A DNA stretch of 64,000 bases, taken from positions 67,486-131,485 of IMG/VR virus record IMGVR_UViG_3300030332_001481, one strand, 5' to 3'. Each line of letters begins with the position of its first letter. Position 1 is the first letter of the stretch. The notes below the pieces were generated by a model, which was not told where the DNA came from, searched no databases, and saw only the letters and a list, made by a program, of their open reading frames with translations. This stretch comes from a virus (taxonomy: Duplodnaviria; Heunggongvirae; Uroviricota; Caudoviricetes). Below, one piece after another: positions 5,213 to 46,185 of the stretch. A program made the translations under genes and the position numbers.

Positions 5213-5917
5213 ATGGCCAGCGACAAGTCTCGAAACTCTTATCAGAAGGACTACCAGAAGAAGCGTTATCACTCCCGTAGGCAGGAGGCGATCGACATTC
5301 TGGGTGGGAAGTGTTCTTCCTGCGGATCGACTAAGAAGCTAGAGTTCGATCACAAGGACCCCAAGAAGAAGAACTTCGCGGTCACAAAGCTCTGGTCCAC
5401 GCCGGAGAAGGAGTTCAAGGGAGAGGTCAAGAAGTGCCGCCTGCTGTGTAACTCCTGTCACAAGAAGAACACTGCAAAGCAGCGGGAGAGTGGGGAAGTA
5501 AAGTCGGTACCTGGCAAGAAGTCCTACGATGATAGTGGCCGCAAGAAAAAGAGTGCAGCCGCTCGGCTGCTGAAGGTGGCAGAGGCTCTCGACTTCTCCG
5601 CTGCAGTGGCCTCCCTCACTCCCCTTGTAAAGTCGTTGGCGGCCGACTACGGTATCGACGAGTTCGCCCAGTCAGACTTCGACAAGAGCAAGATGCTCAC
5701 CGAGCCTGTCCTGGTGTGGAACTGCTTCAAGCGGGACGGTGGAGGCCACCAGGGTCTGGTTACGGTGTACTCCCCAGATAGCCACAGCAAGGCTGCGGCA
5801 GAGATTTTCGCACGACTCAAAAGTCGTGCACCCAAGTCCGGATGTAAAGTCGACTACGAAGACGACTGGTCTGAGCCAGGTCTCGTAGGTAAGACACTGA
5901 GTCTGCTAATCGAATAG
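5213..5917 (+). CDS. HNH endonuclease-like basic protein
   Basis: CSSCGS...EFDHKDP...LLCNSCH HNH-type motif; Lys-rich. Confidence 0.55.
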   Translation: MASDKSRNSYQKDYQKKRYHSRRQEAIDILGGKCSSCGSTKKLEFDHKDPKKKNFAVTKLWSTPEKEFKGEVKKCRLLCNSCHKKNTAKQRESGEVKSVPGKKSYDDSGRKKKSAAARLLKVAEALDFSAAVASLTPLVKSLAADYGIDEFAQSDFDKSKMLTEPVLVWNCFKRDGGGHQGLVTVYSPDSHSKAAAEIFARLKSRAPKSGCKVDYEDDWSEPGLVGKTLSLLIE

Positions 5918-10056: not shown

Positions 10057-10398
10057 ATGACTACGCGTCTGGAACGGCTGTCCCGCTTCATCGGTACAGA
10101 AATCACTCAGCTCCCTGGTGACATCTACGACAACCTGGTGTCCTACCGGATTTTGGGCTTCAAGCCGTGGAATCTGGAACACCGCACCATCATCGTGAGC
10201 GTAGAGGCTCTCAATGACGCGGTGAACGAGGGACCACTACGCCAAATCATGAATCTACCCAAAAAAGGGGAGACAGTGAACCTGAACTTCCCGCTCACGC
10301 ACATCGAGGAGCTACTCCACACGGGCAAGATGACCATCAACTCTGCAATGCACACCGAGGTGTGGATGGTAGGTACAGGTAGCGATGAAGTACTTTGA
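10057..10398 (+). CDS. hypothetical protein
   Basis: ATG at 10057 inside the tracked ORF avoids overlap with the upstream gene. Confidence 0.4.
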   Translation: MTTRLERLSRFIGTEITQLPGDIYDNLVSYRILGFKPWNLEHRTIIVSVEALNDAVNEGPLRQIMNLPKKGETVNLNFPLTHIEELLHTGKMTINSAMHTEVWMVGTGSDEVL

Positions 10399-10744
10399 GC
10401 TGAAGAAGGACCACCTCACTCTCCTCAAAGAAGTTTCGTGGGATTGGAATGACTGCGCATTCGGGGCTCCGGCGATAGACTGCAAGCGCCCTTTTGGAAA
10501 CTCAGGCTACCAGGTCTACCATGATATCAACGCCGCTTTGGGAGGTCGATGGGACGTCTCCTTGGACGAAGACGGCGACTTCAGCGAGGAAGCTGAGCAC
10601 GAGATTCTAGATCTGTACACGGAGCTTATGGTGGCCTTACAGGTCATCTTCACGGCCCAGAGCCTCGAACCGGGTGTTTACCAGACAGACTCAGAGTGGC
10701 CGCACCAAGAGATCTGGAGCAAAAGCCCTACAAAAGAAAGCTAG
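10385..10744 (+). CDS. hypothetical protein
   Basis: 119-aa ORF. Confidence 0.45.
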   Translation: MKYFELKKDHLTLLKEVSWDWNDCAFGAPAIDCKRPFGNSGYQVYHDINAALGGRWDVSLDEDGDFSEEAEHEILDLYTELMVALQVIFTAQSLEPGVYQTDSEWPHQEIWSKSPTKES

Positions 10745-12938: not shown

Positions 12939-13352
12939 ATGAGCAAGAGAAAGTTTAAGTACTTCACCCTCACCTCCAACGTTGAGTTGGCTGTCGACTT
13001 CTACGGCAAGCCCACAGCACAGGAGCAGCGAACGCTTGAGTCAAAGTGGGTCACAGCAACTAAGCTGACATCAGAGCTAGATGACGCGCTTTGTGAGCTG
13101 TACAGAGGTCTTAGTTACACTGAGGTTCACGCGGTGTACACCGAGCTAGACAAGTCAGATCGAGAAAAGCCCCGTCTGTCCATGACCTTCAAAATCTACG
13201 GTGAGCGGCCTCAAACCGCGGAAGAGAAGGAGCGGTGGAAGGCCGAACAGGAGGAGGAAGTCGATTTGCAGGTCACAAGAGACATGCAGGAGCTGCGTGA
13301 AATCAAGGAGAGGAACCCCGAGCTACTGGCGCAGGTACTCAACGAAGGCTGA
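12939..13352 (+). CDS. hypothetical protein
   Basis: 137-aa ORF. Confidence 0.5.
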   Translation: MSKRKFKYFTLTSNVELAVDFYGKPTAQEQRTLESKWVTATKLTSELDDALCELYRGLSYTEVHAVYTELDKSDREKPRLSMTFKIYGERPQTAEEKERWKAEQEEEVDLQVTRDMQELREIKERNPELLAQVLNEG

Positions 13353-13376
13353 ACATGGATTCCGAGGGGAAATGAA

Positions 13377-13448
13377 TGACCCTGCGGAGACTCGAACTCC
13401 GTTCCAGAGGGTGAAAGCCTCTGATCCTAGCCTATAGACGACAGGGCC
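13377..13448 (-). tRNA. tRNA-Glu (anticodon TTC)
   Basis: Cloverleaf read by eye; anticodon loop CTTTCAC; T loop GAGTTCGAGTCTC; Glu-like D arm TCGTCTATAGGCTAGGA. Confidence 0.7.
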
Positions 13449-13450
13449 GT

Positions 13451-13523
13451 CGCTCCCACAGGGAGTTGAACCCTGGTTTCCCGGCTGAGAACCGGGTGTC
13501 CTTGGCCTCTAGACGATGGGAGC
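13451..13523 (-). tRNA. tRNA-Glu (anticodon CTC)
   Basis: Anticodon stem CCCGG/CCGGG with loop TTCTCAG; Glu-like D arm. Confidence 0.6.
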
Positions 13524-13527
13524 TTAG

Positions 13528-13610
13528 CGGAAGGAGGAGGAGTCGAACCCCTGTGTTTTACCACCTCCGGTGTTCAAAGCCGGCGGCCCACCACTGAGCC
13601 TTCACCTTCC
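13528..13610 (-). tRNA. tRNA-Ser (anticodon TGA), type II; imperfect
   Basis: Ser-like acceptor GGAAGG, long variable arm, loop TTTGAAC with a C.A mismatch at 31-39, T loop TTCGACT; U7.U66 mismatch. Confidence 0.5.
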
Positions 13611-13617
13611 TTACGAG

Positions 13618-13702
13618 CGGTAGTCGGAGGTCTCGATCCCCAGTGCCCTGCAGCACCGCTCCGATTAGCAATCGGGCTTGATCCCTGATCAATTCGACTA
13701 CC
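13618..13702 (-). tRNA. tRNA-Ser (anticodon GCT), type II
   Basis: Anticodon loop TTGCTAA, long variable arm, acceptor GGTAGTC/GACTACC. Confidence 0.6.
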
Positions 13703-13708
13703 AGAAAG

Positions 13709-13793
13709 TGGAAGGAGACGGAATCGAACCGCAACGCTGTTACACGTCCAGCCGCTTTCCAAGCGGTACCTATCCCAGATAGGATCACCTTCC
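13709..13793 (-). tRNA. tRNA-Ser (anticodon GGA), type II
   Basis: Anticodon loop TTGGAAA, long variable arm, T loop TTCGATT. Confidence 0.6.
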
Positions 13794-13973
13794 GAGCACT
13801 TGTTCTTGCTTTTGTGGTCCCGCTCAAGCTCCACTCCATCCAGAGTACCAGTCCAGACTTCGCTTCACAGCTTGACACTGCTTTGTCTTCAGGTGATCAA
13901 TCCTTCGCAACAACGCAGCGCCTCGGCTCTTTTGGTACCAGCCTCAGGCGGGTCCACAAAAGCAAGAACTAAA
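13794..13973 (-). other. 180-nt structured spacer inside the tRNA array, closed by 22-bp inverted repeats; no tRNA fold recognised
   Basis: CTTGTTCTTGCTTTTGTGGTCCCGC (13797-13821) pairs with GCGGGTCCACAAAAGCAAGAAC (13946-13967) across about 125 nt. Confidence 0.4.
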
Positions 13974-14046
13974 TCGGGGAGACCGGATTCGAACCGATGT
14001 CCCATGCTCCCAAAGCATGTGCTAAACCAGCCTCAGCTACACCCCG
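13974..14046 (-). tRNA. tRNA-Pro (anticodon TGG)
   Basis: Anticodon stem CATGC/GCATG with loop TTTGGGA; T arm ATCGG-TTCGAAT-CCGGT. Confidence 0.65.
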
Positions 14047-14078
14047 ATATTTGGCGGCCTTAGGGTGGCCGCCGACCC
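14047..14078 (-). terminator. GC hairpin just downstream of the minus-strand HNH gene (possible terminator)
   Basis: GGCGGCC-TTAGGGT-GGCCGCC hairpin followed on the minus strand by AAATAT. Confidence 0.3.
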
Positions 14079-14079
14079 T

Positions 14080-14643
14080 TTAGGAACCCTCGTCTAGAGT
14101 TCCGTGCCAGTAGCACCAGTTGGCCCACTGTTCAGGCAACGTCGATTGCGGATCGATGTGGAACCGCACCACGGGCAAGCTATTGGGCTTTACAGGCTTA
14201 CTGAGCAGCCGCATGTTTGCTTGAGCAGGGGTCTGGTTGCCCTTAGTGCTGTTGCACTTTTGGCATGCCATGACAATGTTCTCCCAGGTAGTCTTACCTC
14301 CCTGGGCCCTCGGAATTACGTGGTCGTAGGTGAGACGCTTAAGTGTGTGCTTCGTACCGCAGTACTGGCACCTGTACTTGTCTCGGGTGGCAACGTTGAT
14401 TCGAGAGAACTTGACGCTGCGGCGACGAGCCACTTTGCGCAGCAGACGAACTACTGCGGGCATTTTGATGGTAATAGAGATTGAGCGGATGTCTTCGTCG
14501 TACTCCTCCAAGATCTCTACCTTGCCTTGGAACAACATCGTCACCGCTCTCTGCCAAGAGACGACTCGATGAGGTGAGTACGACTGATCGAGCACGAGCG
14601 TCCTCATTTCAGTCTCCTGGTTAATCAAATAAGCTGTCACCAA
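14080..14643 (-). CDS. HNH endonuclease
   Basis: [44 protein letters not shown]. Confidence 0.75.
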
Positions 14644-14666
14644 CCCACCCTGTAAAGAGGTAAGCT

Positions 14667-15041
14667 ATGCGACCTATTCCGACTCTGAGTGGCACCTGCG
14701 TACAGTGCGAGCGATATACGATGGTCCACGACGACGACACGTGCGATGCGTGCGTATCCCGCATCCCGCCTCCCCCACGGAATCCAGGAAGGGTTCAAGT
14801 GATCCTGTCCTACACTTTCCTGGGGAGTCTTGGACTTGGGGTTTTAGCAGCCGTGCTGTACTGCTGCGCGGCCACCGTCCGGTGGGGCTTCGGCGAGCAG
14901 GTGAGCAGCCCAGCAGTATTTGGGCTTGTCATTTGGTTTGTGCTGTTCGTTGTATCCGTTGTATATGCAGCTGATGTAGTGTGTGCGCACCTGGGTAACT
15001 CTTCGAGAGAAGGCCGTGCCACTCGACCCAAAGAGTTCTGA
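14667..15041 (+). CDS. putative small membrane protein with an N-terminal zinc ribbon
   Basis: CVQCERY...CDAC, then two hydrophobic helices. Confidence 0.35.
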   Translation: MRPIPTLSGTCVQCERYTMVHDDDTCDACVSRIPPPPRNPGRVQVILSYTFLGSLGLGVLAAVLYCCAATVRWGFGEQVSSPAVFGLVIWFVLFVVSVVYAADVVCAHLGNSSREGRATRPKEF

Positions 15042-15042
15042 T

Positions 15043-15100
15043 GGTAGCCGCGGTCGGATTCGAACCGACACTGTTCCTGAAACTAGCGTCTGTTCTCAGA
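15043..15100 (-). other. tRNA 3'-half-like sequence (variable, T arm, acceptor 3' strand, encoded CCA) flanking the IS right end
   Basis: GTCGG-TTCGAAT-CCGAC-CGCGGCT-A-CCA; no matching 5' acceptor strand found nearby. Confidence 0.4.
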
Positions 15101-15236
15101 GTCTTACCTGACATTCTCATGCCGGTGCTCTGTTGACGCTTCACTCGGGCTGGTTTCGCCATCTGCCGTAAGGCAGTTGGCCAGAGCCTTCCCGTCCACG
15201 TCCTGCAACCGAGGAACCCCCGGCCGTAAGTTTATT
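15069..15236 (-). ncRNA. TnpB-associated omega RNA (right-end element RNA): scaffold 15090-15236 overlapping the tnpB 3' end, guide-like flank 15069-15089
   Basis: 147-nt block near-identical to a second copy at 29663-29809, with an internal GNRA-loop hairpin. Confidence 0.55.
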
Positions 15237-16321
15237 GCTGCGTTGAGGTCACGGTCACAGTTGAATCCGCAGACTTCGCAGTTGAAAGTTCGCTCACTGA
15301 GCGTTAGCGATCCATTTACGGCTCCACAAGAGGAGCACGTTTTTGACGACGGGTAAAATCGGTCATGCACGAATACTTCTGACCCGTACCACTTGGCCTT
15401 GTATTCGAGCTGCCTACGTACCTCAAAAAACGAAACGTCATGAATCGCCTTGGACAGCCGTCTGTTCTTTACCATACCACTGACATTGAGGTCTTCGATC
15501 CCAATGTGACCGTACGACTTAGACACGATAGACGTCATCTTGTGAAGTGCGTCTCTGCGCTGGCAAGAGATTCGGTAATACAGACGTGCAACCGCTGCCC
15601 TTTTTCTTTTGTACCTATTTGACCCCTTCACTGACCTGCTCAGTGACTGTTGGAGTCTTCTTAGTTTCCTTTCACTGTTTCTTAGTGCTCTAGGGTTAGA
15701 GAACACGGTTCCGTCAGACAGGGTTGCCAGTGTCTTTATTCCTAGGTCGACTCCGACCGAGTCTCCGTGGTTCTTGGGGACCTCGATGTCCTCCTCGACC
15801 TGGAATGAGACAAACCAGTGACCTGCCCTTTCAGATACCGTTGCAGATAGGATCCTGCCCTTGATTTTGGGCGTCTCTTTTAGCCTGATGCGTCCGAGTC
15901 TCGGGAGCTGAACATGCCGATCAAGTACCTTGATCACACCGTATAGCTTGAACGTGCCCAGGCCCTTCTTTTTACTCTTGAAGCGCGGAAATCTTGCCCT
16001 CTTCGAGAAGAAGTTGTCGTATGCTCGGTCCAGGTCGCGTAGTGCTTCCTGCATTGCACACTTGGACACCTCGTACATCCACGGGAACTCTGTCTTCTTG
16101 AGGGCATTGAGCTGCTTGTGCTGTGTCATCGCCTTGGATGACTTGTACTTAGGCAGTTCTTCCCCGGCGGCCTCCTTGGCCTTGTACTCAGCGTATTCGT
16201 CAATGCGGCGTCGAAGGCCCCAGTTAAAAGCGAAGCGCGCAGCACCACAATGGCGAACGAGATGTCCTCGTTGCTTGTTGTTAGGTCGCATCTCGACCTT
16301 GTAAGCGCGATTAATCCTCAT
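15104..16321 (-). CDS. tnpB: TnpB (OrfB) RNA-guided endonuclease of the IS200/IS605 family
   Basis: C-terminal RuvC-like split with zinc finger: SKTCSSCG...CEVCGFNCDRDLNAAINL; N-terminal region typical of OrfB. Confidence 0.85.
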   Translation of the reverse strand: MRINRAYKVEMRPNNKQRGHLVRHCGAARFAFNWGLRRRIDEYAEYKAKEAAGEELPKYKSSKAMTQHKQLNALKKTEFPWMYEVSKCAMQEALRDLDRAYDNFFSKRARFPRFKSKKKGLGTFKLYGVIKVLDRHVQLPRLGRIRLKETPKIKGRILSATVSERAGHWFVSFQVEEDIEVPKNHGDSVGVDLGIKTLATLSDGTVFSNPRALRNSERKLRRLQQSLSRSVKGSNRYKRKRAAVARLYYRISCQRRDALHKMTSIVSKSYGHIGIEDLNVSGMVKNRRLSKAIHDVSFFEVRRQLEYKAKWYGSEVFVHDRFYPSSKTCSSCGAVNGSLTLSERTFNCEVCGFNCDRDLNAAINLRPGVPRLQDVDGKALANCLTADGETSPSEASTEHRHENVR

Positions 16322-16350
16322 CACCTGAGGTACTCAGTTTACATGGTAAA

Positions 16351-16422
16351 CGTCCCCACGTGGATTCGAACCACGATTTTCGACTTAGGAGGTCGAAGTT
16401 CTATCCATTGAACTATAGGGAC
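16351..16422 (-). tRNA. tRNA-Arg (anticodon CCT)
   Basis: Anticodon stem TCGAC/GTCGA with loop CTCCTAA; T arm CGTGG-TTCGAAT-CCACG. Confidence 0.7.
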
Positions 16423-16428
16423 AACTAG

Positions 16429-16501
16429 CGATCGCGATAGGAATCGAACCTACAACCGCCCGGTTCGTAGCCGGGTGCTCATCCTGTTGAGCTTCGCGAT
16501 C
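16429..16501 (-). tRNA. tRNA-Arg (anticodon ACG)
   Basis: Anticodon stem CCCGG/CCGGG with loop CTACGAA; acceptor GATCGCG/CGCGATC. Confidence 0.75.
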
Positions 16502-16505
16502 CAAG

Positions 16506-16575
16506 AGGCGCAGGTGAGAATCGAACTCGACCTTCGCGGATTTGCAGTCCGCGTCCTTCCCAGAAGGACCGCGCC
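16506..16575 (-). tRNA. tRNA-Cys (anticodon GCA)
   Basis: Acceptor GGCGCGG, discriminator U, anticodon stem GCGGA/TCCGC with loop CTGCAAA; T stem imperfect. Confidence 0.55.
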
Positions 16576-16578
16576 GAA

Positions 16579-16650
16579 AGCGGGTAGTCGGAATCGAACC
16601 GACTTATCCAGGGTGGAAGCCTGGCGCATCGCCATCAATGCTTTACCCGC
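16579..16650 (-). tRNA. tRNA-Gly (anticodon TCC)
   Basis: Acceptor GCGGGTA/TACCCGC, anticodon stem CCAGG/CCTGG with loop CTTCCAC. Confidence 0.75.
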
Positions 16651-16656
16651 GAGAAG

Positions 16657-16740
16657 TGGGCCCTGATGGAATCGAACCACATAGCCAATTGGCACCTGTG
16701 TTACAGACAGGGGACCGTCCCAGCGATCTATTCAGAACCC
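16657..16740 (-). tRNA. tRNA-Tyr (anticodon GTA), type II; non-canonical 5' region
   Basis: Anticodon stem CCTGT/ACAGG with loop CTGTAAC, long variable arm; acceptor needs two G.U pairs; D region atypical. Confidence 0.45.
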
Positions 16741-16745
16741 GAAAG

Positions 16746-16818
16746 TGGAGCTGAGGGGAATCGAACCCCTGACCCCCTGTCTGCCAGACAGGTGCTCTCC
16801 CAACTGAGCTACAGCCCC
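16746..16818 (-). tRNA. tRNA-Ala (anticodon GGC)
   Basis: G3.U70 present; anticodon stem CCTGT/ACAGG with loop CTGGCAG. Confidence 0.75.
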
Positions 16819-16825
16819 AATTGTG

Positions 16826-16893
16826 TCGTTCGAGTGGGACTCGAACCCACGGCCTCTTGCATGCTAGCGCTCTCCCAGCTGAGCTACCGAACG
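16826..16893 (-). pseudogene. tRNA-like element with canonical D and T arms but a truncated anticodon/variable region; acceptor pairing extends to an 11-bp inverted repeat
   Basis: Only 17 nt (CTAGCATGCAAGAGGCC) lie between the D arm and the T arm, and no 5-bp/7-nt/5-bp arm can be drawn there. Confidence 0.35.
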
Positions 16894-16898
16894 ACACA

Positions 16899-16971
16899 TG
16901 TACCCGGACGGAATTGAACCGACATCCAGCGGACCACAACCGCGTGCTCTAGCCGTTGAGCTACAGGTACC
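16899..16971 (-). tRNA. tRNA-His (anticodon GTG) with genome-encoded G-1 and A73
   Basis: Anticodon loop TTGTGGT; an extra 5' G precedes the GTACCTG acceptor; discriminator A. Confidence 0.7.
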
Positions 16972-16975
16972 ACAA

Positions 16976-17048
16976 AGCTCCGAGCCGGACTCGAACCGGC
17001 CGTCTCCCACGTACCAAGCGGGTGAAGCGCCACCTCTTCTTTCGGAGC
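16976..17048 (-). tRNA. tRNA-Thr (anticodon GGT)
   Basis: Acceptor GCTCCGA/TCGGAGC, anticodon loop TTGGTAC. Confidence 0.7.
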
Positions 17049-17055
17049 AATACTA

Positions 17056-17127
17056 TTGGTCCACTGGGAATCGAACCCAGATTTCTCGCGTATCAGACGA
17101 GTGCCCTAACCATTAGACGATGGACCA
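17056..17127 (-). tRNA. tRNA-Ile (anticodon GAT)
   Basis: Anticodon stem CTCGT/GCGAG with loop CTGATAC; U1-A72. Confidence 0.7.
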
Positions 17128-17132
17128 GTGAG

Positions 17133-17215
17133 TGGTGGAGGAGGGACTCGAACCCACAATTCCCGAAGGAGCCGGATTTACAGTCCGGTGCCGCTACCTG
17201 TGCGACGTCTCCACC
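17133..17215 (-). tRNA. tRNA-Tyr (anticodon GTA), type II
   Basis: Anticodon stem CCGGA/TCCGG with loop CTGTAAA; long variable arm; acceptor GGTGGAG/CTCCACC. Confidence 0.7.
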
Positions 17216-17218
17216 CCA

Positions 17219-17291
17219 TGCTCGGAGTCGGAATTGAACCGACGACACCCTGATCTTCAATCAAGTGCTCTACCTGCTGAGCTATCCGAGC
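17219..17291 (-). tRNA. tRNA-Phe (anticodon GAA)
   Basis: Acceptor GCTCGGA/TCCGAGC, anticodon loop TTGAAGA; Phe-like overall. Confidence 0.75.
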
Positions 17292-17306
17292 CTGTAAAAT
17301 CAAGCC

Positions 17307-17567
17307 ATGACTGACTATTACGACTTTGAGTTTCCCGTGAAGCTCGATCGAAGCAGAACATCAATAGATGTTCTCACTCCGCTGAACGAGATGCATGGGT
17401 ACGTCCCGTCCTGGGATCCAGTAGACCAACAGTCTGACCATGTCAGAGCAGTCCGGACCGCGAAGGCCCAGCTCAACTCCAGCTACATCGGGGCCTTCCG
17501 CCTCCACAAGGACGGCACCATTACTCTACGGTCCCTACGGGAATCGAACCCGCCCACACCTGGATGA
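17307..17567 (+). CDS. possible small protein (MTDYYDF N-terminus) in the gap between tRNAs; 3' end overlaps tRNA-Asp on the opposite strand
   Basis: ATGACTGAC start typical of this genome; 230-nt tRNA-free gap. Confidence 0.3.
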   Translation: MTDYYDFEFPVKLDRSRTSIDVLTPLNEMHGYVPSWDPVDQQSDHVRAVRTAKAQLNSSYIGAFRLHKDGTITLRSLRESNPPTPG

Positions 17568-17601
17568 CAACCAGGCTGCCTTCCCAGCAGCATCAAGGAC
17601 C
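17529..17601 (-). tRNA. tRNA-Asp (anticodon GTC)
   Basis: Anticodon stem CCTGG/CCAGG with loop TTGTCAT; T arm GCGGG-TTCGATT-CCCGT; discriminator G. Confidence 0.7.
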
Positions 17602-17604
17602 TAA

Positions 17605-17676
17605 CAGGCCACCGAGGAATCGAACCCCGCAGACGGTCGGATTTGGAGTCCAACCCGGTTACCCAGACCGTGACCT
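17605..17676 (-). tRNA. tRNA-Trp (anticodon CCA); atypical D arm and 7-nt variable loop
   Basis: A1-U72, anticodon loop CTCCAAA. Confidence 0.55.
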
Positions 17677-17680
17677 ATGA

Positions 17681-17751
17681 TGGAGGCGGTAGGAATCGAA
17701 CCGTACTACCCTACTGGATACCATCCAGTGCTCGCCTTGAGCTTCACCTCC
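17681..17751 (-). tRNA. tRNA-like gene; anticodon uncertain (possibly GGT); irregular T region
   Basis: Acceptor GGAGGTG/CGCCTCC, GGTTCGATTCC T-loop signature, hairpin ACTGG-ATGGTAT-CCAGT. Confidence 0.35.
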
Positions 17752-17755
17752 ATAG

Positions 17756-17831
17756 CTGGCCCCCTGGGACTCGAACCCAGAACCCTTCCGTTAACAGCGG
17801 AATGCTCTAACCAAAATTGAGCTAGGGACCA
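17756..17831 (-). tRNA. tRNA-Asn (anticodon GTT)
   Basis: U1-A72, anticodon stem TTCCG/CGGAA with loop CTGTTAA. Confidence 0.7.
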
Positions 17832-17904
17832 ATACTTGGGGAGGATGGTGCCTCCCCTCGGAATCCATATTCAGTTGTCATTGTGTGGGTCTGGGCAGAT
17901 CCCA

Positions 17905-18326: not shown

Positions 18327-18400
18327 GGAGAGGTGGCCGAGTGGTCGAAGGCGCACGCCTGGAAAGTGTGTGTACCTAACCGGTAATCCCACCCTCTCCG
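18327..18400 (+). tRNA. tRNA-Ser(GGA)-like element lacking a T arm (degenerate or armless tRNA)
   Basis: Acceptor GGAGAGG/CCTCTCC, Ser-type D arm TGGCCGAGTGGTCGAAGGCG, anticodon arm CACGC-CTGGAAA-GTGTG, variable arm TACCTAACCGGTA, then only ATCCCAC before the acceptor. Confidence 0.4.
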
Positions 18401-29246: not shown

Positions 29247-29319
29247 GGGACCTTAGCTCAGCGGCTAGAGCATTCGGCCTTTAACCGAGCGGTCGTGGGT
29301 TCGAATCCCACAGGTCCTA
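29247..29319 (+). tRNA. tRNA-Lys (anticodon TTT) with an unusual C33
   Basis: Anticodon stem TTCGG/CCGAG with loop CCTTTAA; T arm GTGGG-TTCGAAT-CCCAC. Confidence 0.55.
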
Positions 29320-29323
29320 ATAC

Positions 29324-29397
29324 GGGTCGCTAGCTCAACTGGTAGTAGCAGCGGATTCTTAATCCGCCGGTTCGGGGTTCAAGTCCCCGGCGACCCA
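29324..29397 (+). tRNA. tRNA-Lys (anticodon CTT)
   Basis: Acceptor GGGTCGC/GCGACCC, anticodon stem GCGGA/TCCGC with loop TTCTTAA. Confidence 0.75.
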
Positions 29398-29453
29398 TTA
29401 CTCTACCCTGTAAAGGGTAGGTACCTGAAAACTAAATCGAGAAGCAAAAATGA

Positions 29454-29526
29454 TCGGGCGTAGTTCAGTTGGTAGAACGACGGCTTCTGGCGCCGTATGT
29501 CGGGGGTTCGATTCCTCCCGCCCGTA
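29454..29526 (+). tRNA. tRNA-Gln (anticodon CTG); positions 1 and 72 are unpaired (U.U)
   Basis: Anticodon stem ACGGC/GCCGT with loop TTCTGGC; acceptor TCGGGCG/CGCCCGT. Confidence 0.6.
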
Positions 29527-29576
29527 TGACACAGGTTGCTCTACACCTACTAAAGTAGAGACGAGACAAGTAGAGA

Positions 29577-29660
29577 GGGGACGTGGCGGAATAGGCAGAC
29601 GCAGGAGACTCAAAATCTCCCGATCGAGAGGTTGTGTGGGTTCGATCCCCACCGTCCCCA
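29577..29660 (+). tRNA. tRNA-Leu (anticodon CAA), type II
   Basis: Acceptor GGGGACG/CGTCCCC, anticodon stem GGAGA/TCTCC with loop CTCAAAA, long variable arm. Confidence 0.75.
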
Positions 29661-29662
29661 CT

Positions 29663-29829
29663 AATAAACTTACGGCCGGGGGTTCCTCGGTTGCAGGACG
29701 TGGACGGGAAGGCTCTGGCCAACTGCCTTACGGCAGATGGCGAAACCAGCCCGAGTGAAGCGTCAACAGATCACCCACACGTGAGTGTGGGGTAAGGCTC
29801 TGAGAACAGTGTAACGGATGAGCTGGATG
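29663..29829 (+). ncRNA. solo omega-RNA-like right-end fragment of an IS605-family element (last ~38 tnpB codons plus scaffold), immediately upstream of tRNA-Val
   Basis: About 105 nt identical to the tnpB 3' end, then a divergent hairpin with compensatory changes (CCCACAC-GTGA-GTGTGGG here, GGCAT-GAGA-ATGTC in copy 1), then the conserved GGTAAG.CTCTGAGAACAG and a unique 20-nt flank. Confidence 0.55.
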
Positions 29830-29897
29830 GATAGCTCAGTTGGTAGAGCGCTGGTTTTACACACCAGTGGTCGTCGGTTCGATCCCGGCTCCATCCA
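29825..29897 (+). tRNA. tRNA-Val (anticodon TAC)
   Basis: Acceptor GGATGGA/TCCATCC, anticodon stem CTGGT/ACCAG with loop TTTACAC. Confidence 0.8.
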
Positions 29898-29983
29898 TAG
29901 GTAGATAGCCTGGCTATACGCAGGTCTACCCGGACAATTAGCGTATAGGTTCGGGGTGGCGCGGACACACAACTGCCACACTC

Positions 29984-30059
29984 GGGGCCTTAGCTCAGTT
30001 GGGAGAGCTCCGGCTTTGCACGCCGGGTATTTGCGAGGGTTCGATTCCCTCAGGCTCCA
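29984..30059 (+). tRNA. tRNA-Ala (anticodon TGC)
   Basis: G3.U70, anticodon stem CCGGC/GCCGG with loop TTTGCAC. Confidence 0.7.
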
Positions 30060-30068
30060 TAAAACCCT

Positions 30069-30854
30069 TTAGTATGATTTGCCTTCGGCGTATCTCTGAC
30101 GGCGGTAGTGTCTGCCTTTACCCCTGTTTTTGCCCTTGTACGTGTCTGTAAGTGCGTGGCAGTTTGAACAGATCAATCTTAGGTTCTCATCCCTATGATC
30201 ATAGGGATCCCCATTGATATGGTCAGCTTCTAGTGGAATATCCACTCCCTGCCACTTCTTTCTGCGGCAGACGTCACATCGTAACGGCCGAGTGTGTAGT
30301 AAATAGTTCCGTAAAGTGCTCGCGGACGGATTACCTTTGCGCACACTTGAAAACGTTCTGTGCAGTGCACTGCACGTACGCGAGCAGAACTTACTAACTG
30401 GAAGTGCTTCGTACGTTGTCCCGCACTGGTTGCACTCCTTGAGGATAATCTTCTTCACCCGCTTAGGGTATTTACTGTTATTGATAGTTGCTGCACAGCT
30501 TTGAGAGCAATAACGCCTGTTATTCGCAGGTAAATCCATGAACTCTGTGCCGCAGTTTCCACAATTTATTGGCGTGCTCTTGCTCCCTCTTATTCTGGAG
30601 ACCAGAATTCCATTATTCTGTGCCCAGACACGAACTGCATTCGCAGATCTTCCTAGTTCGGTGCCAACTTCTTTGTGGGTGGCACCCTTCCGCAATAGGG
30701 AGGCTGCCTTTTCCTTGTCTTCCGTTGTCCATTTTCGCATTATTACGTGCCCAAGTAAGTTAACAGGTAAACTGCGGCCTTTGTACCGCCGATAAGACAG
30801 TTCGAGTCTGTCCTTGGGCTTCAGATAACTCGATGACAGCTGTTTCGCGTCCAA
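30069..30854 (-). CDS. HNH endonuclease with an N-terminal HTH-like region
   Basis: CDVCRRK...EADHINGDPYDHRDENLRLICSNCH. Confidence 0.75.
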   Translation of the reverse strand: MDAKQLSSSYLKPKDRLELSYRRYKGRSLPVNLLGHVIMRKWTTEDKEKAASLLRKGATHKEVGTELGRSANAVRVWAQNNGILVSRIRGSKSTPINCGNCGTEFMDLPANNRRYCSQSCAATINNSKYPKRVKKIILKECNQCGTTYEALPVSKFCSRTCSALHRTFSSVRKGNPSASTLRNYLLHTRPLRCDVCRRKKWQGVDIPLEADHINGDPYDHRDENLRLICSNCHALTDTYKGKNRGKGRHYRRQRYAEGKSY

Positions 30855-30882
30855 TGCGCAGCTGGATCGATAAATGAGATGT

Positions 30883-30955
30883 TCGGGCTTAGTTCAGTTG
30901 GTAGAACGCCAGGTTTTGGTTCTGGATGTCGGGGGTTCAAATCCCTCAGCCCGTG
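30883..30955 (+). tRNA. tRNA-Gln (anticodon TTG); positions 1 and 72 are unpaired (U.U)
   Basis: Anticodon stem CCAGG/TCTGG with loop TTTTGGT; same body as the tRNA at 29454. Confidence 0.6.
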
Positions 30956-31033
30956 TGAAATAGGTCGCTCTATACCTATAAGTATAGACAAGTCCCTCCG
31001 CCCGTTTCAAAACAGGAAGGAAAGGTAGAACTC

Positions 31034-45441: not shown

Positions 45442-46185
<744 letters not shown>

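Follow-up and report, generated by a model that had tools for sequence, protein, structure and literature searches.

We analyzed a 64,000-nucleotide (nt) stretch of DNA (the window, positions 67,486 to 131,485 of the IMG/VR virus record IMGVR_UViG_3300030332_001481), in which a tnpB gene lies within a cluster of tRNA genes. The window belongs to the approximately 388.5-kb genome of an uncultured marine jumbo phage: exact copies of ORF124, an open reading frame (ORF) flanking the element, occur on 12 metagenome contigs, those of 388,512 and 388,528 bp being two independent Tara Oceans assemblies, and the population contigs are about 99.7% identical to the window. Its approximately 30 tRNA genes, as recovered by ARAGORN and Rfam, form two clusters, one on the minus strand (13377-17831) and one on the plus strand (29247-30956), and none of them encodes its CCA. 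Directly upstream of the tnpB element is tRNA-Arg(CCT) (16351-16423, minus strand; 16350-16423 by ARAGORN, with 66.5 bits over 16351-16422 by Rfam), the last gene of the minus-strand array. It is followed on the same strand by the tnpB ORF (15104-16324), a predicted omega-RNA scaffold that forms the right end of the element (15090-15236), and a 5'-truncated tRNA remnant (15042-15089). A second, solo copy of the scaffold (29663-29809) is found 14.4 kb away in inverted orientation on the plus strand, between tRNA-Leu(CAA) (29577-29661 by ARAGORN and Rfam) and tRNA-Val(TAC) (29824-29898 by ARAGORN, 29825-29897 by Rfam). With moderate confidence, we interpret the feature as a tnpB-only TnpB/omega-RNA module of the IS200/IS605 type, a selfish, homing-type element in a phage tRNA cluster, whose guide is provided by its right-end flank. 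The setting is slightly unusual, while the element itself is an ordinary kind of mobile element.

The protein encoded by tnpB (minus strand; likely start ATG at 16321, stop TAA at 15106-15104) aligns over residues 4-367 with the TnpB of ISDra2 (Protein Data Bank entries 8exa/8bf8; E = 1.4e-63). It is matched by the Pfam domains OrfB_IS605 (6.5e-31), Cas12f1-like_TNB (2.4e-23) and HTH_OrfB_IS605 (4.2e-14), at scores of 107.5, 82.5 and 52.2 bits that all exceed the respective curated cut-offs of 30.5, 26.3 and 21. In the alignment to ISDra2 TnpB the three RuvC catalytic positions fall in the segments GVDLG, IGIEDL and CDRDLNAA, and this intact D-E-D triad corresponds to D191, E278 and D361 of ISDra2 TnpB. 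The window has only one copy of tnpB. A crude regular-expression screen for TnpA, covering the stop-to-stop ORFs of the window shorter than 260 aa, recovered no HUH-type motif, and the immediate neighbors of the element are a tRNA and ORF124, which is without a Pfam match. Within the window, the element thus lacks the Y1 HUH transposase of an autonomous IS200/IS605 transposon, in agreement with the initial annotation, which had described a TnpB unaccompanied by TnpA about 30 nt after tRNA-Arg.

The distance between the end of tRNA-Arg(CCT) at 16350/16351 and the ATG at 16321 leaves a leader of 26-29 nt (16325-16350, minus strand), which is the candidate left end. Together with the start codon it reads TTTAC-CAT-GTAAAC-TGAG-TAC-CTCAG-GTG-ATG, where TTTAC (16350-16346) is a candidate transposon-adjacent motif (TAM). 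The TTAC-like motif before the element and the GTTTAC-CAT-GTAAAC palindrome (16351-16337), both pointed out previously from the sequence, are real, and a second small hairpin, CTGAG-TAC-CTCAG (16337-16325), follows them. The 28-nt leader folds with z = -2.0, a value equalled by 5 of 200 shuffles, and the leaders of two relatives (L098 and L004) are equally short. The window offers a single candidate left end, consisting of this leader with TTTAC and two small hairpins, along with a defined right end.

The right end is furnished by copy 1 of the predicted omega-RNA scaffold, which extends over the final 133 nt of tnpB and terminates in ...GGTAAGACTCTGAGAACAG. It is 94% identical to the second copy at 29663-29809, and the similarity stops exactly at 15090, the two being collinear until ...CTCTGAGAACAG and unrelated beyond it. 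The terminal motif ...GTAAG...AGAAC[AG]G is common to seven relatives with TnpB proteins of 49-64% identity (L098, L099, L004, L006, L007, L008 and L128), and two of these, L099 and L128, have a near-identical scaffold end followed by immediate divergence from each other. Because both in-genome copies and the relatives all end in ...AGAAC[AG]G and then diverge, we take the scaffold to terminate at 15090. An RNAalifold consensus of five sequences has 27 pairs, with compensatory change in at least one sequence at 16 of them, and measured against shuffles the folds of copies 1 and 2 have z-scores of -2.4 and -2.9. The locus thus displays a structured omega-RNA at the 3' end of tnpB with a sharp 3' boundary, the pattern by which a TnpB RNA-guided nuclease is recognized. 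Copy 1 also matches the Rfam Transposase-2 model (RF03015), with 28.2 bits and thus short of the gathering score (42.7), and this match continues as far as 15072. We rejected this position as the right-end boundary, since the second hairpin of the model is mismatched and the two copies and the relatives give 15090; copy 2 is not matched by the model.

In the right-end element RNA (reRNA) of ISDra2 about 16 nt are natively drawn from the flank, so that the guide derives from the flank, and the TAM is the target of TnpA (PMC8612924). Given the scaffold end at 15090 and a native guide of this length, the copy 1 guide (ACGCTAGTTTCAGGAACAGT) is predicted to extend from 15089 to approximately 15070 on the minus strand. 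It would thereby comprise the first 16-20 nt or so of the tRNA remnant, i.e. the end of the D-stem and the anticodon arm, at its 5' end, including the site of a 5-nt deletion relative to sister alleles. The remaining T arm, acceptor strand and CCA lie beyond the normal guide length. Neither the copy 1 guide nor that of copy 2 has a second match in the window, as is expected for a self-immune arrangement.

The flank itself is a fragment of a tRNA and not a gene. On the minus strand it presents a damaged anticodon arm, a T arm GTCGG-TTCGAAT-CCGAC (15069-15053), the acceptor 3' strand CGCGGCT (15052-15046), A73 (15045) and CCA (15044-15042). Of the four occurrences of the T-loop 11-mer GGTTCGAATCC in the window, where 0.02 would be expected, three are in called tRNAs and one is in the remnant. 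The initial annotation had read 15043-15100 as the 3' portion of a tRNA without a 5' half. Its T arm, acceptor and CCA are exact, but 15090-15100 belong to the omega-RNA scaffold and the tRNA-like part starts at 15089; a search for the matching 5' half, AGCCGCG plus a D arm, found it nowhere in the window. Four contigs of other marine samples (L082, L084, L088 and L090) have five additional bases, TAGAC (minus strand), at window position 15072. This longer allele, ACG-CTAGT-TTCAGGA-ACTAG-ACAGT-GTCGG-TTCGAAT-CCGAC-CGCGGCT-A-CCA, contains an anticodon arm whose stem has 5 bp and whose 7-nt loop includes U33, the anticodon CAG and G37; a variable loop of 5 nt, the T arm, the acceptor 3' strand, A73 and CCA follow. 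Positions 10-63 of the Rfam tRNA model align to it with 23.8 bits (E = 0.007), as compared to 13.3 bits for the window allele, which additionally lacks half of the anticodon stem. ARAGORN makes no call, and the score of at least 29 bits on RF00005 that would mark a complete cloverleaf is not reached. We found no alternative pairing of the acceptor with the 3' end of the omega-RNA by inspection, and the covariance model aligns no acceptor. Hence the flank represents the 3' two-thirds of a genuine tRNA gene in decay, from which the first 23 nt or so are missing.

That the remnant is decaying is shown by the polymorphism of the 5-nt indel in the population. In the three long-allele contigs that extend far enough to include tnpB (L082, L084 and L088), the longer, intact anticodon stem is linked to a 1-nt deletion in an A-run, at the window equivalent of 15425, that splits tnpB into ORFs of 334 and 88 aa. 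Loss of function is therefore divided between the lineages, since one has lost 5 nt from the remnant, whereas tnpB is frameshifted in the other. As this polymorphism affects both components in a nearly clonal population, it favors a selfish element next to a dead tRNA over a functional tRNA mimic. The designation of the flank as a "mimic" is therefore not supported, and the other option offered at the time, a remnant of a disrupted tRNA, fits best. The proposal that the flank is the omega-RNA guide survives for its first 16-20 nt (15089-15070) and fails for the T arm, acceptor and CCA, which exceed a guide in length. Since the guide is the flank in IS200/IS605 elements, guide and tRNA remnant are not mutually exclusive, and recombination between the two right-end copies, also suggested there, is plausible. 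The parts of the remnant beyond the guide presumably have no role and are what was left undeleted of the broken tRNA.

The origin of this tRNA is less straightforward: it may have been a tRNA-Leu(CAG)-like gene lost by the phage, or bacterial DNA imported with the element. In the latter case the fragment would be a piece of a bacterial (host) chromosome acquired along with tnpB, and the guide would still be aimed at its original site in a bacterial tRNA gene, namely the TAM plus ACGCTAGTTTCAGG. The CCA of the remnant, absent from the approximately 30 phage tRNAs, points in this direction, as does a tRNA-Leu(TAA) in a metagenome-assembled genome (MAG) of Rhodobacterales (L107), to which the T arm and acceptor are identical at 28 of 30 positions including CCA, the two differences forming a compensatory T-stem pair. 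A degenerate form of the acceptor pattern recovered 27 tRNAs from genomes, mostly Leu and Met and none identical, about 12 of them being tRNA-Leu(TAA). On the other hand, the exact 25-mer of the T arm and acceptor has no match in 185,579 species genomes, and in JGI metagenomes it belongs to this phage only; bacterial tRNA-Leu has a long variable arm, as opposed to the 5 nt of the remnant; a CCA arises by chance once in 64 cases; and the closest TnpB relatives, from metagenome contigs, are only 57-64% identical, such that no donor can be named. We therefore regard such an import as improbable. The anticodon-arm pattern was likewise without a match in viral contigs.

A planctomycete MAG contig (L105, Planctomycetota) carries at 5803-5876 a class-I tRNA(CAG) of 74 nt whose acceptor is that of the remnant. 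The contig was considered as a related locus and rejected, as it has no genes in common with the window. Its tRNA and another at 839-913 of contig L111 constitute a form that bacterial tRNA-Leu does not typically take, with a length of 74-75 nt, Leu anticodons (CAG and TAA, respectively), a variable loop of only 5 nt and the GGCCGCG/CGCGGCT-A acceptor of the remnant.

The attachment sites of phages typically reach from the anticodon or T loop of a host tRNA to its CCA end, and the extent of the fragment is of this kind. The fragment could accordingly be supposed to be an attP-type site, the half contributed by the phage to an integration that restores the host tRNA upon lysogeny, and to be unrelated to TnpB. 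Nevertheless, we rejected it as highly improbable: the neighboring ORFs scanned include no integrase, none of the 185,579 genomes has a tRNA end matching the 25-mer, the anticodon-stem indel is polymorphic, and the fragment begins exactly at the omega-RNA boundary. Moreover, tRNA-rich phages of this size, 388 kb in the present case, are usually lytic.

Copy 2 of the scaffold is 147 nt in length and is devoid of the tnpB body and of any left-end sequence. It starts 2 nt after tRNA-Leu(CAA), inside what corresponds to the 3' coding region of tnpB, with the reading frame open to the same TAA, and therefore is not one of the palindrome-associated transposable elements (PATEs). It is followed by the flank TGTAACGGATGAGC[T] (29810-29824, plus strand), a would-be guide of 14-15 nt that ends at the 5' end of tRNA-Val(TAC). 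The two scaffold copies are identical at positions 1-108 of 147, and their nine differences are all confined to positions 109-135. Two pairs of the terminal hairpin have substitutions in both partners (U-A to C-G and G-C to C-G), a further pair is altered to a wobble-compatible base and one is gained, giving copy 2 a perfect 7-bp stem. This is the pattern to be expected if both hairpin variants evolved under structural constraint, and hence it suggests that two related elements were once functional here, with the identity of the first 108 nt pointing to later homogenization by recombination.

Such an orphan scaffold invites a different reading, under which the system has been domesticated: copy 2 would be a working gene for a trans-acting omega-RNA, which would be transcribed as part of the tRNA operon and excised by the enzymes that process tRNAs, and the phage would employ TnpB with two guides against rival relatives or other DNA. 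Cleavage by RNase Z or RNase E after tRNA-Leu and by RNase P before tRNA-Val would yield a scaffold of approximately 147 nt with a 14-15-nt guide. The anatomy of the copy is suggestive in this regard, as it consists of exactly the structured scaffold and nothing more, begins 2 nt after one tRNA with a flank ending at the next, folds like copy 1 (z = -2.9) and differs in the variable hairpin by compensatory pairs that maintain its perfect stem. Omega-RNA supplied in trans is functional for another TnpB (10.1101/2023.11.20.567912), and native guides are about 16 nt long. Consensus scans, whose counts were not above those in shuffles, placed a promoter-like site upstream of each tRNA array and no promoter-like or same-strand terminator-like site before tnpB or copy 2, such that co-transcription of either with the tRNAs is only a suggestion. 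The scaffold core is also found in two other viral contigs, in which there is no TnpB within 12-14 kb. Against this, no target was found in the window for either guide, and the frameshift of tnpB in one lineage of the same phage implies that selection on the protein is relaxed. Copy 2 is present in all population contigs, but because the population is nearly clonal its conservation is uninformative, and a simple deletion would also leave a solo right end. We consider a domesticated two-guide system unlikely; that the orphan omega-RNA is in fact released by tRNA processing with a 14-15-nt guide and acts in trans is rather unlikely. The fullest version, a natural tRNA/guide-RNA/tRNA cassette from which tRNA enzymes free copy 2 to load in trans on the single TnpB, making it a two-guide nuclease against the tRNA clusters of competing phages, is distinctly unlikely.

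The two contigs just mentioned (IMG/VR; L129 at ~10160-10440 and L130 at ~2420-2700) have an omega-RNA core GTGGACGGGAAGGCTCTGG...GAAACCGGCCCGAAT[GA]AAGCG and, over the 12-14 kb retrieved, no TnpB-like ORF. They could represent additional orphan guide RNAs, or a different protein may make use of the scaffold.

For the favored selfish, homing-type module, analogy with ISDra2 and related elements suggests a likely mechanism. TnpB with its omega-RNA would cut element-free DNA having the same sequence beside the TAM, be it the corresponding site in a co-infecting relative or the donor joint after excision. Recombinational repair would then copy the element into the cut site, and the element would thus act as a homing endonuclease, like the adjacent HNH gene. 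A review that cites plasmid data treats such non-restorative (TnpA-independent) homing, with co-infecting phages or plasmids as recipients, as a theoretical possibility (PMC13565253).

The odd junction between a complete element and a truncated tRNA can be most economically explained, in our view, by an inversion and a deletion. We posit that one element would have resided in the spacer between tRNA-Arg(CCT) and tRNA-Val, with ...GACG-TTTAC on its left and TGTAACGGATGAGC-tRNA-Val on its right, the element-free form of this site being expected to read ...GGGGACGTTTAC-TGTAACGGATGAGC-tRNA-Val. A second, related element would have been inserted inside a tRNA(CAG) gene adjoining tRNA-Leu(CAA), the intact tRNA(CAG) ending in ...CTAGTTTCAGGAACTAGACAGTGTCGGTTCGAATCCGACCGCGGCTA. 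One deletion could then have taken the 5' part of tRNA(CAG) together with the left end and most of the second tnpB, leaving the 147-nt right end, and recombination between the inverted right ends may have flipped the 14.4-kb segment and swapped the flanks. The present order, wherein a complete element with a normal short leader abuts a 5'-truncated tRNA and a truncated copy abuts an intact spacer, fits such an inversion. Flipping the 14.4 kb puts both truncations side by side, so that one deletion accounts for both. After the flip, the complete element lies between tRNA-Arg(CCT) and tRNA-Val and the truncated one beside the truncated tRNA(CAG), after tRNA-Leu(CAA). This places the CAG remnant next to tRNA-Leu(CAA), and the adjacent isoacceptor pairs Glu/Glu, Arg/Arg and Lys/Lys in the tRNA clusters of the window support such a neighborhood. 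The identity of the copies over positions 1-108 and their nine differences in 109-135 are also the pattern expected for two diverged functional elements partly homogenized by recombination.

Several observations weigh against this reconstruction or the module interpretation as a whole. The inversion isomer is absent from the population contigs, all of which show the present arrangement (12 + 9 + 8 contigs carrying the flanking genes). The Ala, Thr and Gln isoacceptor pairs are split, and hence isoacceptor adjacency is no rule in the window. The encoded CCA of the remnant, in contrast to the tRNAs of the window, hints that it was not the phage's own tRNA gene, and a Leu anticodon with a 5-nt variable loop is atypical. 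The closest relatives, L099 and L128, have no common left end, being alike only from the ribosome-binding site onward, due to which an attempt to infer the TAM from relatives failed; a TnpA-type left end and a TTAC TAM are therefore no more than candidates in this TnpB subfamily, as predicted from the letters of the leader. An element-free genome was not found in any collection searched, and hence the ancestral arrangement is inferred, as are the TAM and the target site. ORF124, ORF137 and ORF207 have no relatives in IMG/VR and none in a 5.8-billion-protein collection beyond this phage, and the phages of GenBank yielded no megablast match to the locus.

Downstream of the element, on the same strand, is an HNH endonuclease gene (14080-14643; Pfam HNH and HNH_5, phrog_16726 at 5.8e-41), which is probably a separate homing gene. 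Together with ORF124 it separates the element from the left tRNA array, and the element, which had been placed between two tRNA arrays, is accordingly better described as lying within a tRNA cluster with these two genes intervening on one side. TnpB homologs are widespread in phages, being encoded by 334 phage records of GenBank and by no fewer than 131 stretches of IMG/VR, and the closest proteins, 57-64% identical, come from metagenome contigs; those at about 55% identity include MAG proteins of Asgard archaea (Promethearchaeati, Freyarchaeum and Ranarchaeia). In two of 60 IMG/VR TnpB loci scanned (L004 and L011) the gene is co-oriented inside or at the end of a phage tRNA array. In the first of these, TnpB is itself located after the tRNA array and is directly followed by an HNH homolog (35% identity, 1e-29). 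The order of tRNA array, TnpB and HNH thus recurs in this unrelated viral contig (L004, 2889-4843; TnpB 49% and HNH 35% identical) as in the window (14080-16423), and the omega-RNA guide of L004 overlaps the HNH start codon.

The wider window presents several further features. Besides tRNAs and tnpB, it codes for tail-fiber-like proteins, a thymidylate synthase and a MazG-like protein. It has more tRNAs, and odder ones, than the list of 26 genes suggests: Rfam alone, with ARAGORN silent, recovers tRNA-like genes at 13710-13793, 16826-16893 and 17681-17751 (minus strand) and at 18327-18400 (plus strand), and uncalled cloverleaf-like sequences with non-canonical arms are seen in the larger spacers (gaps 16651-16744 and 13611-13709, minus strand). 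A tRNA with anticodon CTA at 63394-63469 (plus strand), labeled "tRNA-Pyl" by ARAGORN, is an amber suppressor tRNA and may point to stop-codon recoding or suppression by the phage. The entire minus-strand tRNA/TnpB cluster is bracketed by a 34-nt inverted repeat (13337-13370 and 17853-17886, 82%) with a 16-nt perfect core, ATGGATTCCGAGGGGA, just outside the first and last tRNA; its placement is notable, yet the 16-mer match alone is about what chance would give for 64 kb. Inside the plus-strand array, a Cys-rich ORF of 261 aa (30069-30854, minus strand) with a weak match to HTH_Tnp_1 (E = 4.7e-4) overlaps a tRNA-Thr(TGT) called at 30749-30820. The ORF could represent a further mobile or homing gene, or else either of these overlapping calls may be mistaken. 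Finally, a long GAGGAC/GAC-rich coding repeat at 45472-45789 encodes an acidic tract rich in Asp and Glu.

As it stands, the locus is one more phage TnpB element. It would nonetheless be a clean natural example of a TnpB whose RNA guide is simply the flank, here a broken tRNA. It also illustrates how phage tRNA clusters collect homing-type nucleases, with TnpB followed by HNH recurring after a tRNA array in an unrelated contig, and suggests that short right-end repeats can rearrange a jumbo-phage genome. Only the orphan omega-RNA, with a tRNA on either side, could make it more than an ordinary case. If this guide were indeed processed by tRNA enzymes and used in trans, the locus would represent an intermediate from a one-guide transposon nuclease to a multi-guide system of defense or offense, a step towards a CRISPR-like multi-guide weapon. 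Such a cassette would be a natural counterpart of engineered tRNA-gRNA (guide RNA) arrays, and would suggest compact natural designs for multiplexed TnpB editing.

Among known systems, the closest parallel is ISDra2 TnpB of Deinococcus radiodurans with its reRNA/omega-RNA (Protein Data Bank 8exa and 8h1j). The phage element resembles it in protein architecture and catalytic triad, in a guide RNA whose coding sequence spans the 3' end of tnpB together with the right end and whose last ~16 nt come from the flank, and in size, the ISDra2 reRNA totaling about 150 nt compared to a scaffold of about 147 nt here. It differs in having no TnpA partner in the window, a leader of about 25 nt, a candidate TAM of TTTAC in place of TTGAT, residence in a phage replicon and a second, solo guide-RNA copy. 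The Rfam Transposase-2 RNA (RF03015) aligns to it in the GAAGCG...hairpin...GUAAGAC...GAG portion, but the second hairpin of the model is not present here, the score is below gathering, and copy 2 has no match. It is common for non-autonomous derivatives to lack tnpA but retain tnpB, the ends or both, as in the tnpB-only IS200/IS605 elements (IS1341 group) and the PATEs (mentioned in 10.1101/2023.11.20.567912); a PATE, however, keeps both ends, whereas copy 2 comprises the right end/scaffold only. In its setting the module is comparable to the free-standing homing endonuclease SegB of phage T4, likewise a nuclease gene in a phage tRNA region that promotes its own inheritance in mixed infections. 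SegB cleaves tRNA genes and offers a protein-based precedent in a phage tRNA cluster (PMC13565253). Its recognition is by protein, in contrast to the predicted RNA-guided recognition, through TAM and guide, of the present element. In engineered polycistronic tRNA-gRNA arrays, which are synthetic CRISPR constructs, guide RNAs are placed between tRNAs and released by RNase P and RNase Z; copy 2 is likewise flanked by tRNAs on both sides, but in a natural phage genome and not in a synthetic array.

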